Below are positions 11,682 to 26,308 of a DNA stretch of 32,600 bases, one piece after another. Below the pieces are notes generated by a model that was not told where the DNA came from, made no database searches, and worked only from the letters and a program-made list of their open reading frames with translations. Position 1 is the stretch's first letter, and every line of letters begins with the position of its first letter. The translations under genes were made by a program, and so were the position numbers. Source of the stretch: Bacillota bacterium (GTDB lineage Bacteria; Bacillota; Clostridia; Christensenellales; UBA1242); contig WQZR01000003.1 of the NCBI GenBank assembly GCA_009780625.1, forward strand, positions 1 to 32,600. The letters run 5' to 3'.

Positions 11682-13211
11682 ATGTTTAACATGTCGGGAG
11701 AAACGGTTCACAACATAAACAAGGTTATAAGACTGGCGTCTTCGCAAACCAAGGTTCTGGCTAGGCTTAGCGCAGAAGGGGTGGAAATAAAGCGAGTTCT
11801 TAAAGCAGGCGCAGTTTCGAAGGTTTTAACCCATGAAGTTTTGGAAGGCAGCATTATGGTTGGCGGACTGATTGAAAACTCGGTTATGTTTTTAGACAAA
11901 GACGGCATGGTTAGGCAAATGGAAGGGACTAGCGAATTTAATTTGAAAATTGACGATAGAGCGATTGATATTGAATGTGCTGTTGTTTTTTCTAAGGCTG
12001 TTGTTGTGAGCAGCGAATTTAGGCTGGAGAGTGATTCTGTTGTGTCTATTGAAATTGTTGTTGAAACAGAAATGTTTATAAACAAAAAGCACCAAATCAA
12101 AACAAATATTGTTTCAGACGACAAATGTTTTGTCAAAAGCGAAAAAACAGAAATTCCAACTGTAAGGGCGGTTTCTAGAAAAGAATCTAATTTAGAACTT
12201 ATTATAAAAACAAAGGAAGAGGCAAAACAAATTCTTGAGGTTTCAACAAAGGCCTTTATTAAGGACGTTGTGTTTAAAGGTGGAAACTTGTTTGCAATTG
12301 GGGAGATATATTCTAAAGTAAGCTTTTTGACAAACGATGAAACATCGGAACTTAAAACTGTGTATGACGAAGCAGAGTTTGAAGAAGAACTTATGAATCT
12401 AGAATCGGCACAGTTTGCTTCAGGAGACGCACAAGTTGAGGTTGTTTCAACTTCGGGAAGTGTTAGTGCTAGGGAGATTTCGATTAGAACAAATATAAGA
12501 ATTGATTATGTTGTTTTTGAAAACAAAGAACTTAACCTTGCGCTTGACGCATATTCGACTGCTGCAAATTTAAATTTAGGACTAGACACAACAGTTTTGG
12601 AGGTTCTAAGGTTTAGCCAAAACTTTAAAGATGAAATAAATTCCACAGTTACACTCAAAGTGAAGCCAGACCATAAGGCAAAAGTGAACTCTGTTATTGA
12701 AAAAAACATCACGGCAATCAATGCGTGGACAAAAGACAGGGAATGTTTTGTTGAGGGGTTGGCTAGCTTTTCGGTTATATACGACGAAATAACTCCAGAC
12801 ATGGAGCACAAAGAACTGACAAGTGTTGAAGTGGAGTTGCCTTTTTCGCTAAGTTTTAGGGAACCACAAGCAATTGAAGGCGACAAACTTAGAGTGAGTG
12901 TGAGTTTTAAAAGTACAGACATAAAACAACTTCGAGGAGAAGAGGCAGAAATCAGCAGTTATTTAAACTTCTTTGTTGGAGTGTATAGAACTGAAGAGCA
13001 TGTGCATCTTTCATCTGTAACTGTTGATGAAGCAGTTGAGCAGGAGCATATGGCATTGACTCTATATATTGCAACAGGCGGAGATGATTTGTGGGCAATT
13101 GCAAAAAAACTTAGAGTGGACCCGGCGATTGTTGTTTCGCAGAATCCAGAATGTGAGAGCGAAATAAAGACAGGACAACAGTTGACCATCTTTCGACAAA
13201 GAAACGTCTAG
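11682..13211 (+). CDS. sipL: SPOCS (DUF3794) repeats plus C-terminal LysM spore coat morphogenetic protein, SipL-like
   Basis: ~510 aa with three beta-rich domains ('VEG.....VIY', 'LPFS') and C-terminal LysM 'YIA..GDDLWAIAKKL.V....V..NP.....I..GQ.L.I'; adjacent to veg and spoIIR as in Clostridia. Confidence 0.8.
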   Translation: MFNMSGETVHNINKVIRLASSQTKVLARLSAEGVEIKRVLKAGAVSKVLTHEVLEGSIMVGGLIENSVMFLDKDGMVRQMEGTSEFNLKIDDRAIDIECAVVFSKAVVVSSEFRLESDSVVSIEIVVETEMFINKKHQIKTNIVSDDKCFVKSEKTEIPTVRAVSRKESNLELIIKTKEEAKQILEVSTKAFIKDVVFKGGNLFAIGEIYSKVSFLTNDETSELKTVYDEAEFEEELMNLESAQFASGDAQVEVVSTSGSVSAREISIRTNIRIDYVVFENKELNLALDAYSTAANLNLGLDTTVLEVLRFSQNFKDEINSTVTLKVKPDHKAKVNSVIEKNITAINAWTKDRECFVEGLASFSVIYDEITPDMEHKELTSVEVELPFSLSFREPQAIEGDKLRVSVSFKSTDIKQLRGEEAEISSYLNFFVGVYRTEEHVHLSSVTVDEAVEQEHMALTLYIATGGDDLWAIAKKLRVDPAIVVSQNPECESEIKTGQQLTIFRQRNV

Positions 13212-13224
13212 GCGTTTCTTTTTA
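13198..13224. terminator. Probable terminator hairpin overlapping the sipL and spoIIR stop codons
   Basis: AAAGAAACGT-CTAG-GCGTTTCTTT followed by T residues. Confidence 0.55.
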
Positions 13225-13738
13225 TTAAATCCCACAAGATGCTTCTATACTCAACATTATCGCCAGTTCCGCCGGAGATGAAGCAAAGGGGCGGATAAAT
13301 CACGCACCACCAATTTTGGCCGTTTCCATTGCCGAGCGTGATGATTAGGGCATCATAAAACCCGTTTTCCAAAACTGTGCCGTTATAGCTTCTTGTTGGA
13401 AAATGCTCTTGAGATAGCCTTGCTGAAGCTCCATAACCAAAACCGTTTGCTCTAAGCACGGCTATTGAAATTTGCTCAATCATTTTGATGTTATTGTTTA
13501 TTATTTCTATTGCTTCTTTGGCTGAAGACGTGGCTTTGACTCTTGGCTCGATATAGGCAACAACTTCTTCCATGACAAGAAGTTTAACCACTTGGTCTTG
13601 TTGGCTGTCGGAATTTGCTCGAATATGAAACCTCAAAAAGCCTTCTGCCGTTTTTGGGTTTTGGTTGAAAAAACTTACTCCAAAGAACACCAAAGCAAGG
13701 CTGCAAATGACTGATGAAACTATTATCATTTTCTTCAT
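13208..13738 (-). CDS. spoIIR: Stage II sporulation protein R
   Basis: 'LRFHIRANSDS..DQ.VKL.V', 'FPTR.Y....L..G.YDAL.I.LG.G.GQNWWCV.YPPLCF'. Signal peptide begins at ATG 13738. Confidence 0.95.
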   Translation of the reverse strand: MKKMIIVSSVICSLALVFFGVSFFNQNPKTAEGFLRFHIRANSDSQQDQVVKLLVMEEVVAYIEPRVKATSSAKEAIEIINNNIKMIEQISIAVLRANGFGYGASARLSQEHFPTRSYNGTVLENGFYDALIITLGNGNGQNWWCVIYPPLCFISGGTGDNVEYRSILWDLIKRNA

Positions 13739-13785
13739 ATAAAGAGTATTGACGCCAGAGAAAAGAGACAAAAAAGAATTATGTA

Positions 13786-13815
13786 GAATAATAAAAAACA
13801 ATGTTGGTTATATTT
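13786..13815 (+). promoter_or_regulatory. Putative forespore (sigmaF/sigmaG) promoter for the ypeB-like gene
   Basis: GAATA-15 nt-GGTTATATT matches the sigmaF-type consensus GYATA-15-GGnnAnAnT. Confidence 0.5.
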
Positions 13816-13819
13816 ATTT

Positions 13820-14851
13820 ATGGTTAGAATTGCCCTAGTTAGACGCGTTGGTTTTCTTTTTGGAATGCTTATTTTAAGTGTGGCAATGTTCACGTTTTTG
13901 GGGCTGTATGTTGCACAAAAAACGGCACTAGCAGCCAAAGAAAAAGAGTTTGAAAGGATTAGAACACAAAGCCTTATAGAAACACACAAAGTGACAAAAG
14001 ACATCGAAATAGGGCTTATTTCAGCCCTGGCTGCAAGCAATCAGGCAAATCAACACAATGCACTAACCAATGTGCATTACAATTCTAGGTATGGTTTAGG
14101 GCTTGTTGAAACGTTGCCTTTAAACACAGAAAGCAAAGAACAAATGGCACATTTTTTTGGTGTTTTGGTGGAATATTCTCTTGCGGTTTCTGGCAGTGTT
14201 TTGTCTTCTTTAAATAGGGAATCTTTGAATGAAATTTTGGGAGCAACCACCATTGTTTTGGCAGGTTTAGACTCACTTGTGGAAAGAAATGAGAGAGGTG
14301 AAAAACTGGCCAATGAATCTATTTTTAGAAGTGAAGTGAGGGATGTTCTGAATAAAGATGCTTTTAGAAATAGTGCAGTTCTTGCTAGTGCAAAAGTTTT
14401 AAACACAAGGCCGCTGACAGTTGAAGAGGCTGAAGTTAGGGTTTTAACACAGTTTAATAACAAGGGAATAAGAAGCCATAGGCTTATTGGGAGAAACAGC
14501 GGAACATATGAATTTGAGTTGACGCTTAGACACAATGAACGTGTTAGAGTCTTTGTTTGTGAGACTATAGGAGTTGTTGTTCGAATGGAGAGAAATGAAG
14601 TCCCGAGGGCTATGAACATAACCAATGAGATTGCAACAACCAATGCCAAAAGATTTGTTTTGGAACAAGGCATAACAACTCTTGAGGTTTTTAATATTGC
14701 ACCAGCTGGAAGAACTGTTGTTGTTTATATGGCGCCAAGGAAAGACGGGAAGTTTCTTATAGAAAACCGCGTGAAACTTGTTGTGAGTCTTGATAGTGGC
14801 AATGTTATATTTATGGACGCAAGTGTGTTTTATTTGTCGAAATTTGTATAA
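13820..14851 (+). CDS. ypeB: Germination protein YpeB-like (PepSY domains), divergent
   Basis: N-terminal TM helix, 'LP' helical region ('LVETLPL....QMAHFF....EYS'), and C-terminal PepSY-like 'VKL.VSLD.G.V...DA..F'; near spoIIR. Confidence 0.65.
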   Translation: MVRIALVRRVGFLFGMLILSVAMFTFLGLYVAQKTALAAKEKEFERIRTQSLIETHKVTKDIEIGLISALAASNQANQHNALTNVHYNSRYGLGLVETLPLNTESKEQMAHFFGVLVEYSLAVSGSVLSSLNRESLNEILGATTIVLAGLDSLVERNERGEKLANESIFRSEVRDVLNKDAFRNSAVLASAKVLNTRPLTVEEAEVRVLTQFNNKGIRSHRLIGRNSGTYEFELTLRHNERVRVFVCETIGVVVRMERNEVPRAMNITNEIATTNAKRFVLEQGITTLEVFNIAPAGRTVVVYMAPRKDGKFLIENRVKLVVSLDSGNVIFMDASVFYLSKFV

Positions 14852-14883: not shown

Positions 14884-16155
14884 ATGATTTTCACCAAAGA
14901 ACAACTTATTGATTTAGGTATACACGAGCTTAGAGTGATAGGGCGTGAAGTTGGCGTTAAGAGCCCTTCTTCTTTGACTAAAGATGTTCTTGTGAGAGAG
15001 ATTTATCAAATATCGAACAAACAAAAACTTCCAAACATGAAGCATACAAGAGGCAGACCAGCAAAGGTTGGAACAGGTTTGATTTTTGACAGAACAAGGC
15101 TTTCTAAAGACGAAGGCTTTTTGAATCCAGAGTTTGTGGAGCTTGGAAGCAGCACAATTGACGAAAGCGAATTATATGAAACAGTTGAAACAATTGGCTA
15201 TATAGACATTCTAAGTTCTGGACACGGAGCGATTAGAGAACAGTTTATTCCAAATGTGGAGCAAGATGCAATCATCACAGATGCGCTTATAACCAAGCAC
15301 GAACTTAAGTCTGGAATGAGGGTTAAGGCAATATGCAAAAAGTTTAAAAACAGAAACCTAAGTGTTGCAACAGAAATTTTGGAGAATTATTCAAAAGAAA
15401 GCAGAGTTGATTTTTCAACACTTAAAAAAGCCCCTGCAAACAAAAGGCTTGTATTTGTTGACGATTTGAAACTATATAACAAAATTGCAGTTGTTGGTGC
15501 GGGAGAGAGTGCTCTTATCAGTGCACCGAGCCAAGATTTGGCTGACAGATTGATTTTGAAATTGTTTAATGGGTTGAACGCAAAAAATAAGTGCATGGTG
15601 TATTTCAACCCTAGTCTTGTTATGGAAGAAGGCTTTTCAAAAAAGAAAGATGAAAAAACAATTCTTGTTCCAAAAACAGCAACAACAAGAGTTCAACTTA
15701 AAATGCTGGAACTTATTGTCCAACACAAAAAGAGAATGGTGGAAGCGGGCGAAGATATTGTTTTGTTTGTGAACAACCTAAATATTGTTCTAGATTTGAT
15801 TTCGGACATAAACACAGTGAATGCAAACGTTTCGGCAGAGCAACTTCAGATTTTGAAAGAATTTGTTTTCAGCAGTGGAGACTATGGCAAAGGAAGTTTT
15901 ACGCTGGTTTTGGGTGCTGGAGTTGAAAATCTTAGAGAACAGGTTGTTTATAACTATCTAAAAACTGTTGCTGATGTGAATATTGTGGTTAGTGAAGCGA
16001 ACAGCTTTTTGGTTGGAGATGTTGCGATTGATTTGTTTAAAACAAACTTAGACAGAAACAATGCACTGATTGGTGAGGCAGAGGCAAAGAGACTTAAAAA
16101 ACTTATATATGACACGCGAGATGATTATCTAAAACTGTTGGAAGAAATAAAATAA
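14884..16155 (+). CDS. rho: Transcription termination factor Rho homolog with degenerate ATPase motifs
   Basis: Rho N-terminal helix bundle ('ELR.IGRE.GV...SSL.K..LV..I'), RNA-binding OB fold ('GYIDIL..GHG.IR', 'L.SG..V'), then 'KRMVE.G.DIVL', 'GSFTLV', 'VVY..LK' and 'AID..K'. Walker A and Walker B are lost. Confidence 0.8.
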   Translation: MIFTKEQLIDLGIHELRVIGREVGVKSPSSLTKDVLVREIYQISNKQKLPNMKHTRGRPAKVGTGLIFDRTRLSKDEGFLNPEFVELGSSTIDESELYETVETIGYIDILSSGHGAIREQFIPNVEQDAIITDALITKHELKSGMRVKAICKKFKNRNLSVATEILENYSKESRVDFSTLKKAPANKRLVFVDDLKLYNKIAVVGAGESALISAPSQDLADRLILKLFNGLNAKNKCMVYFNPSLVMEEGFSKKKDEKTILVPKTATTRVQLKMLELIVQHKKRMVEAGEDIVLFVNNLNIVLDLISDINTVNANVSAEQLQILKEFVFSSGDYGKGSFTLVLGAGVENLREQVVYNYLKTVADVNIVVSEANSFLVGDVAIDLFKTNLDRNNALIGEAEAKRLKKLIYDTRDDYLKLLEEIK

Positions 16156-16182
16156 AAGAGGGGTTTGTAGCCCCTCTTTTTT
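16154..16182. terminator. Bidirectional intrinsic terminator after rho
   Basis: AAAAGAGGGG-TTTGTAG-CCCCTCTTTTTT. Confidence 0.9.
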
Positions 16183-16333
16183 GTGGTAAGCAGTTTCGTC
16201 CTTCATCAATTAGATATTCAACTATTCGCAAAATACCACTTTCCTTTAGGTTTCGGGCTTACGCCGGCACTTCCTAAAGCCTTATCGATTGCCTGTTTTG
16301 GCGTTCTGTTTGGTCTAAAGCTTAACTGCTTAG
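16183..16333 (-). ncRNA. Candidate ~150-nt structured non-coding RNA, family unassigned
   Basis: 9-bp closing stem (16187-16195 with 16324-16332), inner 7-bp helix (16244-16250 with 16273-16279) and a GGC-GUAA-GCC GNRA hairpin on the minus strand. Lies between two terminators and has its own promoter-like sequence. Confidence 0.55.
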
Positions 16334-16336
16334 AAC

Positions 16337-16365
16337 TATTATGTGTACGTTATAAAATAATATTC
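16337..16365 (-). promoter_or_regulatory. Putative sigmaG promoter for the candidate ncRNA
   Basis: GAATA-17 nt-CATAATA matches the sigmaG consensus (GnATA...CATAnTA); the predicted +1 falls at the start of the closing stem. Confidence 0.5.
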
Positions 16366-16389: not shown

Positions 16390-16419
16390 AAAAAAAGTTG
16401 GGCGAACCCAACTTTTTTT
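16390..16419. terminator. Intrinsic terminator of the giant surface protein gene
   Basis: AAAAAAAGTTGGG-CGAA-CCCAACTTTTTTT directly after the stop codon. Confidence 0.9.
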
Positions 16420-19400
16420 TATCGAACTTTCATCTTGTATCGTAGTCTAACGAAGAAGAATATTCCGGCAACAAGAAGAATCGACGCAACAACAATCAGC
16501 ACAACTGCAACGGTGTTGAGCGGTTCTCCAATGAACACCATGTTTCTCATAAGAATGAAACCTTCTGGAGTTACAACTTGAACGATGTATATGCTGTTGA
16601 ATGCCCCCAGATTTTCGATGTGTTCTGTTCGGTCTGGACTTTCTGAGTTAACTTCAACACGTTCAATAAGCACTCTTTCACCGCCTTGGTCAGGTTGTCT
16701 GAAAACTTCGATGAAAACTGTTCCATTTCTGTGGTATATGAAACTTGGGTTGAAGCTTATAGTGAACGGGTCGTTTGTTTTTGTTGCCCACGGTTGACTT
16801 GTTTGAATTAGAGGGTTTTCGTTTGAAATGAACACTCTGAATGTATATTCTGTGTTTGTTCTAAGGCTTGGCTCAGACGCTGTTCCGAACGATGCTCTAA
16901 CTGTGAAACTATATCTTCCGTCACTCAACATTCCGTTTCTATCTGGAGTTCTGTCGAAACTTGAAAGTTGAATTTGATTTCTGTTGTGTGTGACTGCAAA
17001 CAACTCGTCTAGAATTGGTCTTCCAATTTCGTTAGGGTTTAGAGTTGCAAATCTTAGACCGCTTACAATTTCAACATTTGCTCTGCTTTGCATAAATGCA
17101 TAGTCAATTCCAAGTCTTGCAATTGATGGGTCTATGATGAAGAATGTATATCTTGTTTCTCTGTTTTGAACTGGAGGTGAAGCGTTTGGAACAGAGTAGG
17201 TTACTGTCAATTCATAGAACCCTGGTCTTGTTAGGTTTAGAATGTGAGGCTGAAGTTCTGATGACTCGAACGCTTCTTCGCCGTTTAGCATTGCTTTCAT
17301 AGAAATTGCACTAAATCTATGAGCATGAGTTGCTGTCAGACGAACAGAGTTTTCATACACCATGTTGCGAAGAGCTGCACCGTGTTCTGCGTTTGCAGAG
17401 TTGAAGTTTGTGCTTTCAGCTGAAAGCATTGCTTCTGTCAGAACATAGAATGCAATTTGAGTTGTTGTCACTCCGCCTGATGCAATTCTGTGAGTGTTTC
17501 CGGCAAGGTCTCTAAACACAAGTGTATACCTTCCTGGTTCAGACAGTCTAACTCTTGCAGAACCTGCAGAGTTAAGTTGAGAAACATCGCTTCTTCCAAC
17601 TGTTTGAACAAGTCTTCCTTCATAGTATATGTCATCAAAGTTCAGGTTTCCATAGAACGAAGATGTTGAGGCATCTGTGCTTCTTGAAGTGAAAGTGATA
17701 AGTGAGTGTGCTTGCGCTGGGTCTGTGTTTGTTATATCGTTTGTCGCTTGAATTGTTCTTCCAACACCAAAGTGGAATTCGTTAGGGTTTTCTCTGTTTA
17801 GACCGCTTAGAGTTGTTGTTGGTCTGATTACATAGATATCTGCAAACTGTCTAACTGTGCTGTCGCCAGTTGCAGTGATTTCGAAACGAAGACGTCTTAG
17901 GGCATCTGTTGGAAGCCCTTGCCCTGATGTTAGTGTGTGGAACAGTGAGAATGTGACGTTGTTTTGGTGAATTGGGTTTATTTGTATTGTTGGGTTTGTG
18001 TCGATTGTGAAGAACCTTGTGATGATTCTTGGGTTTTCATTCATGATAACCACTTCATCTCCAAATATTGGAGATGTTTCGATTCTGTTTCCTCGGCTAT
18101 CAATTGCCCAGAAAAGTCTTGCATCTTGTTCTTCGATGATGATTGTGTAGTTTCTTGTGAACCCAAGGTTTGAAGTGAAGGTTAGGTGATAGATGCTGTG
18201 AAGCCTTTCAAAAGGAGTTCCACTGCTGATTTGACCCATGTTTTGGTGAACACTTAGACCAGTGATTGGGTTTACTTGTTCTTCAACTGCGGTAAGTATG
18301 AAACCAAATGGGTTTCCAGGAGCTGTTTCATATGTAAGCCTTGCAAAGTGCGTAATCAACTCACCATCTGCTGTGAAACTTTGTTTTGCAACTGTTGTGT
18401 TTTCGCCACCGGCTGTCCAAGCTTCAAGCTCTGGGAATGTTGAGTCGTAAATCACTGGACCGATTGTTGTTGAGTTTTCAAGTATGGTTGAATTTAGAAG
18501 AATTCTGATTTCAATTCTCACATTCACTCTTTCGTTAAATGATATAACTCTAAGCCCTGTTCCAGCAGGGTCTACACTTGTTGTGAAGTTTGCTGGATTC
18601 ATTGTCACCCAACTTCCGCCAGTGATTAGGTTTCTTTCTTGAATTGTTACAGTGTGAAGTTGAGGGTTATATCTATATCTTAGGTTTTGAGTTGCATACA
18701 ACGGACCAGTAGGGTGAGGAACGTTGATTGCACCATCGAAGTGTTGGCGACTTGCTGTTAGGTTTGTGATTGCTTTTGTGTCGGTTCTGCCGAAGTTGTC
18801 TACATACCACAATCTATACACACCAGCAGTCAGTGTAAACCTTGCAACTTGACCTTGCTCGAATGCAATTGTTTGAGCAGGTGTTGAGTTGTCTGTCAAT
18901 ATAGGGTTAGGTTGACGGACGTTGTTTACATACCTATGAAGGGTGTGAGTGATTGTTGTGCTTGCATTGAATGCACTGCCAAGAATTCCAATAACAATTG
19001 GCTGACCCTCTGGGTTTACGTTGTCTATGTCTACAAATGCACCAGCAAAGTGGAAAATCACTCTTAGGTTTTGTTCTGGGTTGTTTCTGTTATGAATTGT
19101 AAGCGAATAACTTGAACCCGCAATTGTGTCAACTCTTCCAGTGCCTGTGAGTTGTTCTTGAATATATTCTTCTGCGTGTTTCATAACATCGTTTTTGTTC
19201 AGGTAGCCATGCGAGAAGAATGTTCTTGAATTTGTTGCTGTTGGAGTTGGATAGAATGGGTCTGTTCTGTCCATAACGGTAACCATAAACCATTTGTCTG
19301 GAGAACTTACGTTATTTACAACAAAGTTTCTGGTTGCATCTCCTGGTCTATAGATTGCGTTTACAACTCTTGGGGCAGGAGAGTGGGTTAGGTTTAAGGT

Positions 19401-22400
19401 TTGTTGTCTAGCTGCTGCACTTGTTGGAATTTCGTTATAGAACGAAACACTCATGCTTGGTCCGATTGTCGCTTCTTCTGGGTTTGGAACATAGATGAAG
19501 AACCCTCTAAAGTTTCCTGCCATATCTCTTTCTATAATTTCGAAGTTTGTTTCATCTGTCCAGTTATAGAATGTGAGAATTGACTGAAGTGTGTGTTGAG
19601 GACCGTATTGAATAAGTTTATAGTCTAGGTTGTTTGGGTCGAATATTGGGTGTCTGTCTAGATTGATTCCGTCAACCGCTGCAAGTGCTTCGAGGTCGTC
19701 GTCTGGAAGAATTGAGAATAGAGATAAATCGCGGTTTCCTGCGTTTGATTCTCTAACTTCTCTAATCCAGATTTGATAGCTGTCTAGACGTGGGCTATAT
19801 CTTTCTTCTAGTCTTTCAAGAGGACTGTTGTTTAGAATTACGTTGTTTGTTCTTGTATGCTCGAAGAAATGGCTTCTGTTTGCAACAAAGCTGTATGAAC
19901 GAAGCATAACTGCATCGTCTGTTTCTGAGTTTAGAACGCCTATAACATCTCTTGCAAAATGTTGTTCGTCTTCTCTAACAACAAGATGGTGCGTTGCATC
20001 TGCTCTGTTTAAGAACTCAAACAAGAATCTGTCTGTTTGCAGAAGTTTTGTAAGGTTGCCTTCTGGTCTTAGGTTGTCGATGATAAGAACATATCTTTCT
20101 TCACCGAAGCCTTCGCCCGTGCTTCTAACATAGTTATCTAGGTCGCCAGTGAAGCGAACAGTGATTGCAAAAACATCACCCTCTCTTGAGGCGTCTAGTT
20201 TAATGAAATAACGTCTTCTGTGATTGTCTCCGCCATGTGTTCCAAGTCCTTCTGAGTTTTCAATTTTTCTGAATTCAACAAGTGGGGTTACTGAAACTCC
20301 ATTGTGAAGAACTGTCACGTTATTCCAGTCTATTTGTGCTGAATATCTGTCTGCTGGGTCGTCAAAAGCAAACGAAACATATCTTTCTTCTGGTGTGTTT
20401 GGTGTTGGTCTGATTGCAACAACGCCATCTTCAACTTGACCGGTTGGAATTAGTTGATTGTTTAACACTTGATATAGAATTGGACCTTGGTCGTTAAGCC
20501 TTGGAGCTTCTGTTGTTGGGGTTCCATATTCTGAACCTTCGAAATATCTAGCTTGCGGACCAACTGGGTCTATTTCAAAAGCATATCTCATGCGGTTTGA
20601 AAGGAATGGTTCTCTTGCTATTGCGTGGTCGTCGTGGAAGGTTACGAAGTTTACGTCGACTCTGTCTCTAAGCAGAACCGCATACTCTGCAGCGATAAAC
20701 AGTCCACCATTTGTTGTGGATGTTGATTCTCTATATGAACCGTCTTCTTCGCCTATGATGCTGAAGATATCAACAACTTGATTGTTGCTTGAAAGTGGGG
20801 CAGAGGAGCTGTGAATCAAGGCTTCTCTTTCTCTTGGGTGCATGTTGTATGTGTTGAAACTTGTTATTCCAGAAGATAGTTGGATATTCAGGTCCAATTC
20901 TCCACCAATAACAATAAGTGAAAGAAGTTGTTTGATTCTTCTATCAATGCTTGTCAGTCTTTCAAGTTCAACTTGGTTTGAAGTTCTTGTTGCACCTTCG
21001 ATGTCTAGTTTAAGAACTTCAATAAAGTCTGCAATTGCTCTCATTGGATTGTTTAGGTAGTTTGGAGGGAGAACATAGTCTGTGTCTTCTTCAATTATGT
21101 GGAATACTGACGCAAAATATGAAGCAGTAACAACACCATATTTATTTGCAAGAACTTGCATTGCAACTGGAACGAAGTTTGTGTTAAGTTCGATGTTTGC
21201 TGCTTCCCACATATCTAGGTGAGAATATACGACTGCGTCTTGAAGAATCAGAACGTTGTCTTGTCCGATGCTTTGCGAAACATCAATAATTCTGCCTCTG
21301 TCGATTCCAAAAATCCAAATTCTTTCGATTTCATCTGTTTCGAAACCATCTATGTCTATAGGGCTTTCGAACTCTGGAGTGTATCTTCTTGAAACTGTGT
21401 AGCGACCTTCAAGGGTTTTTTCATCACTGCCTGGGTTTAGCATTGTGTCTGGAGTGGTCCATCTGCCTGCTCCAAGATAGTTTATGTGAAGTGTGTTTGA
21501 AACGCCAAATTCTGGTGTTCCGATGCTGTATAGAGCTGCTGGCTCTCCAAGTTCAGCAAAGATTTGGTTGAATGTATAAGTTACAGTTTCAACTTCAAAT
21601 GGCTGCGGAACATCGTTAACTATGCCGCCTCCAAAATCTCTAACCCCAACGTGAGCTCTGTCTCTTGAAGTTGTTACGGTTGGACCTGCAAGGTCTGGGA
21701 ATCTTCCGCCTTGATACCATGCTGCGTTGTCTGTTTCCATTTGGCTTTCGATTCTAACGCCCGCAAGGTCGAAGTTGACATTGATTTGTCCTGCTGTTCC
21801 GTTGTGCCCGAAAACGTCTCTTGCACCAAATAGGAATGTTCCTTCGTTTTGTTTAACTTCAACAAGCCAGAAACCAGCATCACTTACTGACCTTCTGTGT
21901 GTGAAGCCTTGTCTATATACGATTGCCCAAACTGTTTCGCATTCTGGAGCGCACACTGAACCGATGCAGTTTACTGTGCAATCCTTTTCTGGGTTTAGGT
22001 TTTCTGCAAGAAGATTATCTCTTGTGCTTGGAACAGTTCTTGCTGTTCCTGTTGCTCCACCAATACCAAAACCATATGCAAGACGAGTAGGGAGGTCTAG
22101 TGAGTTGAATTGGTTTGGCGAGTGCATGATTCTATATTCTTCTGCATCGTCGTCAAATCCAACTCCGATGTTTTTTGTGAGTAGATATGTCATGTCTGTT
22201 TCGTCGCTTATGTCTATGAAGGCTTCGAAATATCTAACTCCTTGAGTTTCTTCAACTGGCATAAAACTGCCGAGAGCGTTTCTTTTTAGAAGTGGGTTGT
22301 TTACCGCTGGGTCTTGATAGCCAACTGGTTTAACTCCGATGTTTGTTGTTATAAAATCATCGTCTCCAAGTTCTAGAGCTTTGTGTGTTCCCCAAATAAC

Positions 22401-25400
22401 GTTGTGAGTTGCAGGGGCATCTCCGCCTCTAAGGTTGACGCTTAGTGGGTTAGAAGGGTTGTCTGCGTCATGTTCGTCTAGAATGTCTTCTAGAATGATT
22501 GTGTTTGGTCTGATGTCTCTATCCAAAATGATGTAGTAATACGTCACGTTGCCTGCAGTGTCTGTGATTCTGAAAACATATATTCCAGATGTTGCAAGAA
22601 TGCTTTGTGTTGTGTATGGAATAAAGTTTTGGCTTAGTTGTCTGTTCTCGAGCATAAAACGAGCCTGAACCCAAATTTCTTGATTTGCTTCTCTTGCCCA
22701 GTGTCCGTATCTTAGACTGTTGTTTGTTTCAAGACCTTGGCGTCCAAAAACAACGGCATTTAGCGCATCTTCGTGGTCTCCTGAAACAATTGAAAGGTCT
22801 TGGTTGATTGGCGTGAATGCAAATTCAACACCAACTGTTGCACCACTTGCTTTCACATCTTCGAAGTCGAACCAAACCATGTTGTTTGTCACGAATGTTT
22901 TGTCGTCGATTGCAGAAAAACGTCTTAGGAATTCTGTCCAACTTTGCTCTCTCCATCTATTTAGAGCCGTTTCGAATTCTGCATCAGATGCAAAAGATTC
23001 TCTCACTGGAGGTGTTGGAACTGTGTCTCCTCTGGTGTTTTGTTTTGGAGCGATAATAATTGGTTGGGTGTCAATATAGAAGTCAAAAGGAACAGTTGAA
23101 CCTTGAGTTCCAAACCTTGCGGTCAGAACATAGTGCCCGTTGTGTTGTGTGAACTGTCCGTTTTGAGGGAAGTTCTCCCGTGCTTGGCCAAGTGCTTCTT
23201 GGTCTGTCAGCCATGTTCTGCCCATAAGCGCTGCGTCTGGTGCAAAGAACATGCGTGTGAAGCGTCCATCAAACCAGCCATATTTTTCAAACATAGCTAG
23301 CCCTAGAGAGTTTCCAAATGTTGATTGATACCAAGCTTGAGTTCCTTCAACGTTCTGGAACATGTTGTGTGTTGGAACGTTTGTGTTGTTTGAGCCAAGT
23401 GCAATTTGTTGGAATGTGAAGTTTGGCGGAATGTCAAACACGCTGTGTTCCATGATGTCTATTCTTACAGTTTTGTTTGTGTGTGTTCCACTTGTGATTG
23501 GTCTCCAAGTAGCCGTTCCTTCAGATGGGTCTGTTTCTGCAGCATGGCGAACAGACACAGTCGGGTTCGTTGTGTTGATTTCGAAAGCAAACCATTGAGT
23601 TGATGCTTTTCTTCCCATCTCAACTCTGAAGTTGTTTAGGGTTAGGTTATAGATATGGCTGAATTCAATTCGAACAAGATATCTTCCAGTTTGTTCAAAC
23701 AGTCTGTCTCTTGTGAAACTTGATGTAAGAACTTCGGTTCTTCCAAATGGCATGAAATATATCTGGCTGTTTCTTGTGATTGTGCCAGCGTTTGCAAGGC
23801 TACCAACAAAATTGAAGTCAACTGGAGGTTGGTTTGTTGAAACAAGTCCTCCTGGAATTTCTCCACCAGTTGCGCCTGGTGTGTTTCCTGTTGTAAGTCT
23901 TGACATGATTGCATTGAATGTTGCAGGTGTGATGTTTCTTGGGTCAGGAATAGAAGGGAAGCCCCATTCGTTTGCTTGGTTGCCCCAGGTGTTTGGAAAA
24001 CTTGTGCCGTTGTTGTTTGGGTTTGGCATATACTCTGTTATGTTTGCGCCCTGTGTTTGTTGTTGTGTTCCAGCGTGAAGTCCGCTAGATGGGCTGTTTA
24101 GAAGGTTTGTAAGCGTAAATTGACCATTGACATGGTATAGAGGCAAATCTCTTGCAGTTGTTCTGTCGGTATACATCATTTCAAAACCAAAACTGCTAAG
24201 GTGAAGGAAACGCATATCTGCACCAGCAATCACTTGTGGGCGATATTCCATGCTTCCAGTTGATTGGTCGATAATAACTGTCTGATATTCGATTAGATAT
24301 GTTCCAACGTTTTCAAGACAGATTTCAAGTCTTTCACCGGTGTAGGTTGTTCGTGTTTCAACACGTTGCCCTGTAAGGTTTCCAAAACTGTCTCTTCTTT
24401 CACGAGTCACCAAAAGGTTGTTTGCAAATGGGGCAGGGGAAATTAGTTTGATTTCCCATCTAAAAATTTGCTCGAAACCTCTAAGGTCTATATGCGAAGT
24501 ATCGATTGTAACCCAGAAACGATTAGGGTCGAAACTTATTGTTGGTTTTTCTAGAGTTTGTCCATAGAACTGGTATGCAGAAAGTGCAAGCATTGGAGGG
24601 TCGTTTGCTTCAACGCCTGGAATGTCCATAACTCCAATTTTGTCTCCGCTGATATCTCTAGCTAGAGAAGCGCCGTTGATTGTTGGAGCTTTTCCATCTC
24701 CAAAGAAACTGCTTTCTAGAACAAGGTTAAAGTGGATTTGGAAACCATCGTTGTCGAAATTGTTTCCGTCGTGGTCTGCCATGATGTGCGCACCAATGGC
24801 AATTGTGTAGGCACCTTCTGGAAGGGTTGTGTGAGCAAGTGTTTCTCTTCTTATTCCAAGTTGTTGAATTGTTCCATCTCCGTTATAGACAATGTTGTCG
24901 TTAAGCATAATTCTGTTGTCGTTTAGAATCCATGTTGAGTCTGAACATGGCCCTGTTGCAATGTCTGTAAGAACAATGTCGTCATCAAGAGGATTTCCAA
25001 ATAGAAGAGATGTGACTGCAATAGCATTGTTTGCAAGTGAGAAACTGCTGACCTGTGTTGGTCTTTCTGCTGGGTTGAATACAATAACTGCGTCCCATGC
25101 ACCTCCAGCGATGTCTGAGTTCCAGAAAACCAGTTCGCCTTGATTGTTTATTGCAAAACGGTCTTGAACGCCACCAGTTGCAAATGAACCTTCTCCAACA
25201 CTGTGAACCGTGTTTGCTAGGTGTAGTTGGTCTGGCATAAGAACTGTTCTTCTTTCAGCACCAGAGAAAGGGTTTGCCATTGCAAGACCTTGTGGGTTTG
25301 TTGCTGGAATTGCATATGGAAGCATAAGGGAAATCATGAAGCCTTCTGCCTCTGTGTCGTCTTGAGCGTAGCTATAGTGAAGTAGGGGAGAGATTAGAGG

Positions 25401-26132
25401 AAAATCGTATCTGCCAGTTTGAATGCTTGGAGAAACAACCGAAACAGCAATTGGTGTTGTTCCTTCTTCATCTGAAAAACCAACAAGTCGTTGGCCAAAT
25501 TCACCAAAAGAAATATAAACTGCGTCTTTAACTTCGTGCCCCAAAACTCTTGGTGCTCTTGGGTTTGGAAGAAGATTTCTATTCGCATCTCTATCTAAGT
25601 TTGAAATCATAAAGAAGTTGTCTGCACCTGTTTCGAATTGAGCAGGTCTAGAACCAAATGTTGGTGCTCCACCAGGTGTTGCTGAAGGAATTTCGTATGA
25701 TACTCTGATGATTTCGTATTGCTCTCTGTAGGCATCTCTTTCTAGGTTTCTGTATTGAGTGTTTGGAACAACTGGACCGCCAGGAACGCGAATGATTGGG
25801 TTATCTCCACCGCTTGAAATTCTGAACCAGTTTAGATAATGCGGTTGTGGAAGCCCCATTGGTGTTCCGTCTGTTGGGTCGTAGTATTGCTTCATACCAA
25901 AACGTGCAAGGTTTGTGTTTGCACCAGTTGTTTCGGTGTTCATTCTAACCATTTGCGCCAAAAAAGTTCCAGTTGTTTGGTCTGTGCTTGGCGTGGTTGC
26001 AATTGCATCTCTTTTCATTGTTGGAACAAACGCAAAAACAGTACCTAAAGTGGCTGCTAGAACGATGACCATTAAACTAAAAACCCTTGAAATTCTTTTG
26101 CTTCTAAGGGTGGCTTTTTCTACGAAATTCAT
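16419..26132 (-). CDS. Giant (~3,240 aa) cell-surface protein with degenerate Ig-like domains, N-terminal signal/TM segment and C-terminal TM anchor
   Basis: Uninterrupted 9.7-kb ORF; N-terminal 'VFSLMVIVLAATLGTVFAFV'; repeated 'G.Y.....D.AGN'-type motifs; C-terminal TM followed by 'RLRYKMKVR'; no LPxTG. Start set at ATG 26132 (the track uses 26228). Confidence 0.85.
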   Translation of the reverse strand: MNFVEKATLRSKRISRVFSLMVIVLAATLGTVFAFVPTMKRDAIATTPSTDQTTGTFLAQMVRMNTETTGANTNLARFGMKQYYDPTDGTPMGLPQPHYLNWFRISSGGDNPIIRVPGGPVVPNTQYRNLERDAYREQYEIIRVSYEIPSATPGGAPTFGSRPAQFETGADNFFMISNLDRDANRNLLPNPRAPRVLGHEVKDAVYISFGEFGQRLVGFSDEEGTTPIAVSVVSPSIQTGRYDFPLISPLLHYSYAQDDTEAEGFMISLMLPYAIPATNPQGLAMANPFSGAERRTVLMPDQLHLANTVHSVGEGSFATGGVQDRFAINNQGELVFWNSDIAGGAWDAVIVFNPAERPTQVSSFSLANNAIAVTSLLFGNPLDDDIVLTDIATGPCSDSTWILNDNRIMLNDNIVYNGDGTIQQLGIRRETLAHTTLPEGAYTIAIGAHIMADHDGNNFDNDGFQIHFNLVLESSFFGDGKAPTINGASLARDISGDKIGVMDIPGVEANDPPMLALSAYQFYGQTLEKPTISFDPNRFWVTIDTSHIDLRGFEQIFRWEIKLISPAPFANNLLVTRERRDSFGNLTGQRVETRTTYTGERLEICLENVGTYLIEYQTVIIDQSTGSMEYRPQVIAGADMRFLHLSSFGFEMMYTDRTTARDLPLYHVNGQFTLTNLLNSPSSGLHAGTQQQTQGANITEYMPNPNNNGTSFPNTWGNQANEWGFPSIPDPRNITPATFNAIMSRLTTGNTPGATGGEIPGGLVSTNQPPVDFNFVGSLANAGTITRNSQIYFMPFGRTEVLTSSFTRDRLFEQTGRYLVRIEFSHIYNLTLNNFRVEMGRKASTQWFAFEINTTNPTVSVRHAAETDPSEGTATWRPITSGTHTNKTVRIDIMEHSVFDIPPNFTFQQIALGSNNTNVPTHNMFQNVEGTQAWYQSTFGNSLGLAMFEKYGWFDGRFTRMFFAPDAALMGRTWLTDQEALGQARENFPQNGQFTQHNGHYVLTARFGTQGSTVPFDFYIDTQPIIIAPKQNTRGDTVPTPPVRESFASDAEFETALNRWREQSWTEFLRRFSAIDDKTFVTNNMVWFDFEDVKASGATVGVEFAFTPINQDLSIVSGDHEDALNAVVFGRQGLETNNSLRYGHWAREANQEIWVQARFMLENRQLSQNFIPYTTQSILATSGIYVFRITDTAGNVTYYYIILDRDIRPNTIILEDILDEHDADNPSNPLSVNLRGGDAPATHNVIWGTHKALELGDDDFITTNIGVKPVGYQDPAVNNPLLKRNALGSFMPVEETQGVRYFEAFIDISDETDMTYLLTKNIGVGFDDDAEEYRIMHSPNQFNSLDLPTRLAYGFGIGGATGTARTVPSTRDNLLAENLNPEKDCTVNCIGSVCAPECETVWAIVYRQGFTHRRSVSDAGFWLVEVKQNEGTFLFGARDVFGHNGTAGQINVNFDLAGVRIESQMETDNAAWYQGGRFPDLAGPTVTTSRDRAHVGVRDFGGGIVNDVPQPFEVETVTYTFNQIFAELGEPAALYSIGTPEFGVSNTLHINYLGAGRWTTPDTMLNPGSDEKTLEGRYTVSRRYTPEFESPIDIDGFETDEIERIWIFGIDRGRIIDVSQSIGQDNVLILQDAVVYSHLDMWEAANIELNTNFVPVAMQVLANKYGVVTASYFASVFHIIEEDTDYVLPPNYLNNPMRAIADFIEVLKLDIEGATRTSNQVELERLTSIDRRIKQLLSLIVIGGELDLNIQLSSGITSFNTYNMHPREREALIHSSSAPLSSNNQVVDIFSIIGEEDGSYRESTSTTNGGLFIAAEYAVLLRDRVDVNFVTFHDDHAIAREPFLSNRMRYAFEIDPVGPQARYFEGSEYGTPTTEAPRLNDQGPILYQVLNNQLIPTGQVEDGVVAIRPTPNTPEERYVSFAFDDPADRYSAQIDWNNVTVLHNGVSVTPLVEFRKIENSEGLGTHGGDNHRRRYFIKLDASREGDVFAITVRFTGDLDNYVRSTGEGFGEERYVLIIDNLRPEGNLTKLLQTDRFLFEFLNRADATHHLVVREDEQHFARDVIGVLNSETDDAVMLRSYSFVANRSHFFEHTRTNNVILNNSPLERLEERYSPRLDSYQIWIREVRESNAGNRDLSLFSILPDDDLEALAAVDGINLDRHPIFDPNNLDYKLIQYGPQHTLQSILTFYNWTDETNFEIIERDMAGNFRGFFIYVPNPEEATIGPSMSVSFYNEIPTSAAARQQTLNLTHSPAPRVVNAIYRPGDATRNFVVNNVSSPDKWFMVTVMDRTDPFYPTPTATNSRTFFSHGYLNKNDVMKHAEEYIQEQLTGTGRVDTIAGSSYSLTIHNRNNPEQNLRVIFHFAGAFVDIDNVNPEGQPIVIGILGSAFNASTTITHTLHRYVNNVRQPNPILTDNSTPAQTIAFEQGQVARFTLTAGVYRLWYVDNFGRTDTKAITNLTASRQHFDGAINVPHPTGPLYATQNLRYRYNPQLHTVTIQERNLITGGSWVTMNPANFTTSVDPAGTGLRVISFNERVNVRIEIRILLNSTILENSTTIGPVIYDSTFPELEAWTAGGENTTVAKQSFTADGELITHFARLTYETAPGNPFGFILTAVEEQVNPITGLSVHQNMGQISSGTPFERLHSIYHLTFTSNLGFTRNYTIIIEEQDARLFWAIDSRGNRIETSPIFGDEVVIMNENPRIITRFFTIDTNPTIQINPIHQNNVTFSLFHTLTSGQGLPTDALRRLRFEITATGDSTVRQFADIYVIRPTTTLSGLNRENPNEFHFGVGRTIQATNDITNTDPAQAHSLITFTSRSTDASTSSFYGNLNFDDIYYEGRLVQTVGRSDVSQLNSAGSARVRLSEPGRYTLVFRDLAGNTHRIASGGVTTTQIAFYVLTEAMLSAESTNFNSANAEHGAALRNMVYENSVRLTATHAHRFSAISMKAMLNGEEAFESSELQPHILNLTRPGFYELTVTYSVPNASPPVQNRETRYTFFIIDPSIARLGIDYAFMQSRANVEIVSGLRFATLNPNEIGRPILDELFAVTHNRNQIQLSSFDRTPDRNGMLSDGRYSFTVRASFGTASEPSLRTNTEYTFRVFISNENPLIQTSQPWATKTNDPFTISFNPSFIYHRNGTVFIEVFRQPDQGGERVLIERVEVNSESPDRTEHIENLGAFNSIYIVQVVTPEGFILMRNMVFIGEPLNTVAVVLIVVASILLVAGIFFFVRLRYKMKVR

Positions 26133-26308
26133 CTCTTTTTTTACCTTATTATATATCATTTTAATTGCTGTTGAAATTTTACCAATTTTACCCTTTTTAT
26201 TAAAATAAAAACTCCCGTTTTTCGACACTATTTTTCGTTCTTTTTGCTTATTTTAGTTTGAGGAAATGGAGTGGTTTATATGCAAAAAATATGTGTTATA
26301 ATCAAACC

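Follow-up and report, generated by a model that had tools for sequence, protein, structure and literature searches.

An orphan candidate for a sporulation-controlled small RNA in a convergent gap of an uncultured gut bacterium

Contig WQZR01000003.1 of a Bacillota genome contains a 263-nt gap between two converging genes, a Rho-like gene on the plus strand and a giant gene on the minus strand, and the question raised by this locus is whether the gap holds a gene of its own. The contig (C3) was analysed in its entirety, and its 32.6 kb are referred to here as the window. It belongs to a 0.97-Mb genome (G000; 84% complete, 37.8% G+C), and the DNA runs that contain the stretch are labelled termite gut metagenome; the host is an uncultured, small-genome gut bacterium carrying spore genes. 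The initial annotation had proposed a structured, standalone sporulation non-coding RNA at this position. We give about an even chance to the reading that the gap is a lineage-specific, independently transcribed small RNA (sRNA) gene on the minus strand, extending from ~16330 to 16146 and measuring ~185 nt with its terminator.

The promoter-like site and its setting

The candidate unit comprises the following features.

16390-16402 / 16407-16419, minus strand: terminator of the giant gene, a 13-bp stem with arms 100% complementary and a T run; upstream border of the unit
16337-16365, minus strand: forespore-type (sigmaG/sigmaF-like) promoter-like site, with GAATA at 16365-16361, a 17-nt spacer and CATAATA at 16343-16337
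~16331-16329, minus strand: predicted transcription start
16187-16332, minus strand: candidate RNA body, bounded by a 9-bp closing stem, its fold taken from a minimum free energy (MFE) prediction
16332-16324 with 16195-16187, minus strand: closing stem, UAAGCAGUU with AACUGCUUA, 9 perfect pairs over a 146-nt span
16321-16315 and 16280-16274, minus strand: GCUUUAG, two copies
16291-16302, minus strand: small hairpin GCC-AAAACA-GGC
16244-16279, minus strand: main hairpin, with the 7-bp base CUUUAGG 16279-16273 / CCUAAAG 16250-16244
16265-16256, minus strand: tip of the main hairpin, GGC-GUAA-GCC, with a GNRA loop
Within the main hairpin, minus strand: purine-rich, asymmetric internal loop AAGUG / AAA, loop-E-like
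16213-16237, minus strand: third hairpin, A/U-rich, by prediction only (MFE and centroid)
16145-16180, minus strand: downstream intrinsic terminator, with a 10-bp stem (16180-16154), a 7-nt loop and a U run

The promoter-like site, the closing stem, the small and main hairpins and the terminator had all been listed by the initial annotation, and every one of them is present on the minus strand where it had been placed. The unit is bracketed by two terminators, both bidirectional; the downstream one also terminates the plus-strand Rho-like gene, and a phage record annotates a 33-nt stretch that is 94% identical to it as a terminator. The only open reading frames (ORFs) in the gap are of 26-42 amino acids and run through the terminator, and none is credible. 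Of the generic features of a standalone sRNA gene, a promoter-like site, an intrinsic terminator, an intergenic position and the lack of a credible ORF are found here.

The promoter-like site lies ~20 nt past the terminator of the giant gene and is directed across the entire gap toward the downstream terminator, a placement and orientation that add weight to the motif itself; UAAGCAGUU begins four bases past CATAATA. The sequence GAATA-17-CATAATA fits GHATR-N17/18-CATNHTA, which we take to be the consensus of SigG/SigF promoters, including its spacing. In dinucleotide shuffles of the 263-nt gap the motif was found, on either strand, in 35 of 20000. Across the genome it occurs at nine sites (both strands), against 36-38 in five mononucleotide shuffles, and most of the nine sit within coding sequence. 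The promoter-like site is more than chance, and it is the only statistically strong part of the candidate. No sigma-70-type promoter was found in the gap on either strand.

Matches to protein models indicate that the genome encodes forespore-type sigma factors, one SigG-like and one SigF-like. Among NCBIfam models, C37:4529-5281 scores highest with SigG, at 318 bits (NF006071, cut-off 372), and the best matches of C2:5461-6177 are to SigF/SigG and SigF, under the equivalog cut-offs. The earlier description of GAATA-17-CATAATA as a fit to the sigmaG consensus is supported. The clostridial sigmaF/sigmaG consensus closely resembles that of Bacillus subtilis, according to a passage in the work that describes it (PMC3789822).

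Two other genomic sites of the motif are clearly intergenic, preceding a gene for a DUF975 membrane protein and one for a TauE-like protein. The former (contig C23, ~7637-7608, minus strand) is a perfect sigmaG-type motif 66 nt before a 271-amino-acid DUF975 membrane protein gene that has a ribosome-binding site, and this gene is accordingly noted as a candidate forespore gene on the basis of its upstream sequence.

Conservation, fold and the spacer explanation

The gap can also be read as non-functional spacer, that is, ~200 nt of recent insertion or relic between the terminators, with a promoter-like site and hairpins that are fortuitous or are transcribed inconsequentially. We consider this main rival possible but doubtful. 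Most of the results in the following paragraphs weigh against an sRNA gene in the gap, and those on homologues, fold, gap length and the variability of the region speak directly for spacer.

No homologue appeared in any search. With blastn, the element found only itself in 61 genomes (60 relatives and self), and among phage records only the 33-nt terminator look-alike described above. A single-sequence covariance model, built from the element and its MFE structure, returned only noise in 151 family genomes, where the three non-self matches lay in coding sequence or 16S, and only the element itself in 151 order genomes. The Rho-like loci of relatives, where the initial annotation would have sought homologues, yielded none: with filters off, nothing credible was found in 43 syntenic loci, the best match among 25 of them (E = 0.033) lying within a SpoIIR gene and the 18 further loci giving one match (E = 0.22). 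A search pattern for the hairpin had two matches in 401 family genomes, the element itself and one 16S. The same pattern marked 42 stretches in genome_contigs, none with all 5 tip pairs, and 33 in metagenome_contigs, none with all 4 tip pairs; both results are at chance level.

All available relatives are distant, as the Rho-like protein shows 23-30% identity over long matches within the family. Close relatives of this protein were found in neither metagenome_contigs nor genome_contigs, so there is no nearby genome in which covariation might be seen. Copies of the element are present in four DNA runs (three studies, one possibly the source) and show 0 differences where covered, with coverage holes at 16189-16254 in run X2 and at 16183-16191 in run X4; no RNA run was among those containing the stretch. 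This unchanged recurrence, in contigs from two further studies, speaks for the sRNA gene. As these copies are identical, they offer no variation with which to assess covariation either.

The predicted fold is likewise unexceptional. The 154-nt core without the terminator has an MFE of -36.1 kcal/mol (z = -1.51), which 17 of 200 shuffles equal, and the z of -3.58 obtained when the terminator is included is due mostly to that terminator. A perfect inverted repeat of at least 9 bp occurred in 32 of 300 shuffles, placing the closing stem at chance level. The ‘structured’ nature of the RNA is therefore best regarded as putative, since the core folds no better than its shuffles and no homologues were found that could provide covariation. 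It had also been proposed that either GCUUUAG copy could pair, giving alternative folds: the motif does occur twice, but the alternative rests on a chance-level repeat, simple arithmetic giving chance expectation for a 7-mer occurring twice per ~150 nt.

Synteny places the element in a narrower frame. Of 61 family genomes, 49 have the Rho-like gene, in most cases facing the giant gene in convergent orientation, and 30 of 41 encode relatives of the C-terminus of the giant protein, in reading frames 2400-2900 amino acids long; at least six of the genomes common to both searches have the two genes side by side. At 12 convergent loci the gaps measure 33, 39, 43, 46, 48, 53, 65, 73, 81, 125, 192 and 211 nt, all exceeded by the 263 nt of G000, and several relatives share a single terminator hairpin; this, with a separate terminator for each flanking gene in G000, counts in favour of the sRNA gene. 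Because the gaps of relatives span only 33-211 nt, we take the element to be a lineage-specific insertion rather than an RNA of ancestral origin. What follows the giant gene is itself variable, unrelated extras of 150-240 nt being found there in several genera. Within the genome, a crude ORF map gives 25 of 138 convergent gaps as at least 263 nt long (median 29.5 nt), and the size of the gap is in this respect unexceptional.

The promoter motif and the search for targets also have their adverse side. By extrapolation from the gap shuffles, about one chance match to the motif is expected over all intergenic DNA. Calibration on the recognisable forespore genes of the genome failed, in that none was marked by the strict motif; no clear motif could be placed before sigG or spoIIR, and alpha/beta SASP (PF00269) was not found in G000, although at 84% completeness its absence is not established. 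The strongest duplex predicted with any of 970 start regions had -46.1 kcal/mol, compared with -39.1 to -47.0 kcal/mol for 15 shuffles. Antisense 12-mers numbered 33, compared with 11-39 in five shuffles, with no target standing out, and none of the longest antisense matches (14 nt) lies at a start site. Neither Hfq nor CsrA was found in the 84% complete genome.

Three observations nevertheless argue against spacer. The promoter motif is rare, its position and direction are exactly suited to transcribe the gap into the terminator, and the genome is just 0.97 Mb with the short median convergent gap given above. We therefore retain the sRNA gene as the preferred reading. Of the standalone sporulation non-coding RNA first proposed, what stands is its own promoter-like site, its terminator, the lack of an ORF and the presence of SigG/SigF-like genes, whereas no conservation was found.

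Strand, known RNA families and minor alternatives

Besides spacer, four readings were weighed: a functional plus strand or gene tail, an overlooked member of a known family, a small protein gene and a DNA-level site. Even taken jointly, they are improbable.

There is a small chance that the plus strand is the functional one, or that the gap belongs to one of the flanking genes, as a long untranslated tail or an antisense unit. The strand had been described as uncertain, and MFE values indeed fail to tell the two strands apart, the fold of the plus strand (-52.0 kcal/mol, z = -2.84) being as good as that of the minus strand. Both terminators are bidirectional, and a minus-strand transcript reading past its terminator would overlap the 3' end of the Rho-like gene in antisense. 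However, no plus-strand promoter-like site lies within or before the gap, both flanking genes terminate strongly before it, and the GNRA and loop-E features vanish on the plus strand. The minus strand is favoured because it alone carries the promoter-like site, the GNRA loop and the loop-E-like internal loop.

Covariance searches place the candidate in no named RNA family. The whole window gave no Rfam match at gathering scores, and at E up to 10 the only matches of the segment 16000-16550 were terminator-like, to sRNA models from enterobacteria and streptococci, and scored far under the cut-offs. The initial annotation had considered an identity as the raiA motif (RF03072, gathering 101.3 bits), 6S (RF00013, gathering 46.4 bits) or CsfG/ylbH (RF00516, gathering 50 bits; either strand). 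None of these models matched the region at E up to 10 or G000 at E up to 1, and these identities are not borne out. No transfer RNA or transfer-messenger RNA was found within the window. Signal recognition particle RNA was excluded as the identity of the element, as that RNA of the genome sits on contig C32.

That a divergent member of one of the three families was missed by its Rfam model seems very improbable. Such a reading draws on the behaviour of the 6S model, which detected 6S RNA in 0 of 31 family genomes (G000 and 30 others) and, as a control, in only 5 of 14 well-known genomes, so that its sensitivity is limited; any 6S that the lineage may have has gone undetected. It is countered by the three unmatched models and by the distribution of the element, which is lacking both at the syntenic site and in 150 family genomes, whereas a housekeeping 6S would be expected family-wide. 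The 6S RNA is a stable RNA that acts by being bound, not by antisense pairing. As in 6S, the 5' and 3' ends of the candidate would pair in a closing stem. However, 6S is a rod with a central bubble, whereas the MFE and centroid predictions for the core are multibranched and the element is not conserved in the family. The raiA motif, an RNA linked to sporulation, resembles the candidate in being a Firmicute non-coding RNA with several stems, its biochemical function being unknown; its model spans 209 positions, compared with ~146 nt between the closing-stem ends here.

Marchais and colleagues reportedly placed CsfG under forespore sigma control in 2011, and this forespore-driven expression is matched by the forespore-type promoter-like site of the candidate, which counts in favour of a missed family member. 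In B. subtilis, CsfG is the opposite strand of the ylbH leader, and it is described as sporulation-specific and as highly conserved among endospore formers, with CU-rich stretches in its loops and between helices (PMC3574147). The candidate, in contrast, is an orphan that leaves RF00516 unmatched, with A/G-rich predicted loops and linkers and purine-rich single strands (AAAGGAAAG and GAAGGACGAAA).

A small protein gene is harder still to credit. A 42-amino-acid frame with a TTG start (16231-16103) is preceded by AAAGGAAAG, a Shine-Dalgarno-like purine run ~10 nt ahead of the TTG, but the frame crosses the terminator stem into Rho-like antisense, leaving the terminated transcript with no stop codon, and the start is buried behind the main hairpin. 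Equally remote is a DNA-level site, such as an origin of transfer or a site of recombination for the type IV secretion genes 10-14 kb away on the same contig, an idea to which the inverted repeats within the gap lend some colour. No relaxase turned up in the window, and conservation in the family (30 of 41 genomes) extends to the giant gene and its partners, which are chromosomal genes, but not to the gap element; blastn of the element against plasmid records gave no similarity, and a 9-bp repeat 128 nt apart is an unusual shape for such sites.

Possible function and the surrounding locus

For an sRNA gene on the minus strand, we infer the following course of events. RNA polymerase carrying a forespore sigma factor (SigG, possibly SigF) would initiate a few bases past CATAATA, and the transcript would terminate at the intrinsic terminator. 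Its 5' and 3' ends would pair via the 9-bp stem, giving protection from exonucleases, while the GNRA-capped hairpin with its loop-E-like loop, together with the purine-rich single strands AAAGGAAAG and GAAGGACGAAA, would be exposed inside. As to function, we lean weakly to a trans-acting forespore or spore RNA that would work by being bound, as ligand or decoy of a protein or ribosome factor. Antisense pairing to ribosome-binding sites is less likely; being bound is preferred because the predicted RNA has no C-rich loops, no target is outstanding, and Hfq and CsrA were not found.

One likeness offers a more specific lead, which we do not regard as a finding. The covariance model has a local match (E = 0.32) in the 16S ribosomal RNA (rRNA) of a relative from another genus (G106, L035/L036), the 16S of G000 itself being unassembled. 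The main hairpin and its 3' flank are identical at 26 of 34 positions to helix 27 of this 16S, the 885-912 hairpin in E. coli numbering, and the differences in the stem mostly keep the pairing. Both share a common layout of a 3-bp base, an AAGU(A/G)/AAA internal loop, a short stem, a GNRA loop and then AAAGGAA. The likeness is borderline, with 9 of 300 shuffles scoring as well against a 3-kb target, and it ends after 34 nt. A reading of the element as an rRNA pseudogene was rejected, the likeness being only 34 nt long. Very little credence is given to the idea of an RNA made in the forespore that, held in a closed fold resistant to nucleases, imitates helix 27 together with its 3' flank and would titrate a small-subunit-binding or assembly factor. 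If true, such a mimic would contribute to silencing or storing the translation machinery of the spore, in a host in which SASP, Hfq and CsrA were not found and 6S was not detected.

Put more broadly, we regard the candidate as an orphan and a plausible sporulation sRNA, new within the known kind of sporulation-controlled small RNAs. To our knowledge, the sporulation-compartment-specific sRNAs known so far all come from cultured Bacilli and Clostridia. They are few in number, and a function has been established for almost none, as far as passages in two sources describe the field (PMC4152353, PMC3574147). One example is SurC, a sigmaK-dependent sporulation sRNA of B. subtilis, which a passage in one of these sources presents as a small intergenic gene with no known targets (PMC4152353). 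The candidate would resemble SurC-type sRNAs in being a small intergenic gene under a sporulation sigma factor. These differ from it in compartment or sigma factor and in having been found by experiment; their sequence relation to the candidate was compared via Rfam only. If transcribed, the candidate would represent a forespore RNA in a reduced (~1 Mb), uncultured lineage, and would imply that RNA genes are still being gained in such genomes, at a syntenic hot spot. Its value at present is that of a single-genome lead, with no conservation, for metatranscriptomic checking.

The genes around the gap are as follows.

11682-13211: SipL gene
13208-13801, minus strand: SpoIIR gene
13820-14851: YpeB-like gene
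14884-16155, plus strand: Rho-like gene, 423 amino acids, with a weak Rho_RNA_bind match
16419-26228, minus strand: giant gene, 3269 amino acids, with a C-terminal hydrophobic tail / membrane anchor
26901-28973, minus strand: VirD4/TraG-like coupling protein gene
29085-29531 (minus strand) and 29734-30129 (plus strand): two type IV secretion system pilin genes

The sporulation genes (SipL, SpoIIR and YpeB-like) are thus located within the window, just before the Rho-like gene and the gap. The neighbouring gene at 14884-16155 reads as a degenerate Rho relative only, as its product scores 40 bits against TIGR00767 (cut-off 509) and no ATPase domain match was reported. On the other side of the gap, the giant gene stands beside the VirD4/TraG-like gene and the two pilin genes (the coupling protein and pilin genes together being the type IV secretion genes 10-14 kb from the gap), and this group may form a conserved surface or secretion system of ~1-Mb genomes.

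In relatives, small transcription units seem to be gained and lost at this site next to the giant gene, and the larger gaps of two other genera give examples. One syntenic gap (L028, in G034) carries an unrelated, sRNA-like unit consisting of TTGACT-17-TATAAT, ~90 nt and a terminator; it had no match in an Rfam search that covered six loci, L127 of G028 not among them. At L127, downstream of the giant gene, lies a further unrelated, sRNA-like unit with a repeated AAAAAAGTACTTACG motif. At the corresponding position in another relative (L124, in G062), a frame with an apparently unusual start codon after GGAGG follows a promoter and a long leader, an arrangement that, judged by its sequence, looks like an infC-type leader.

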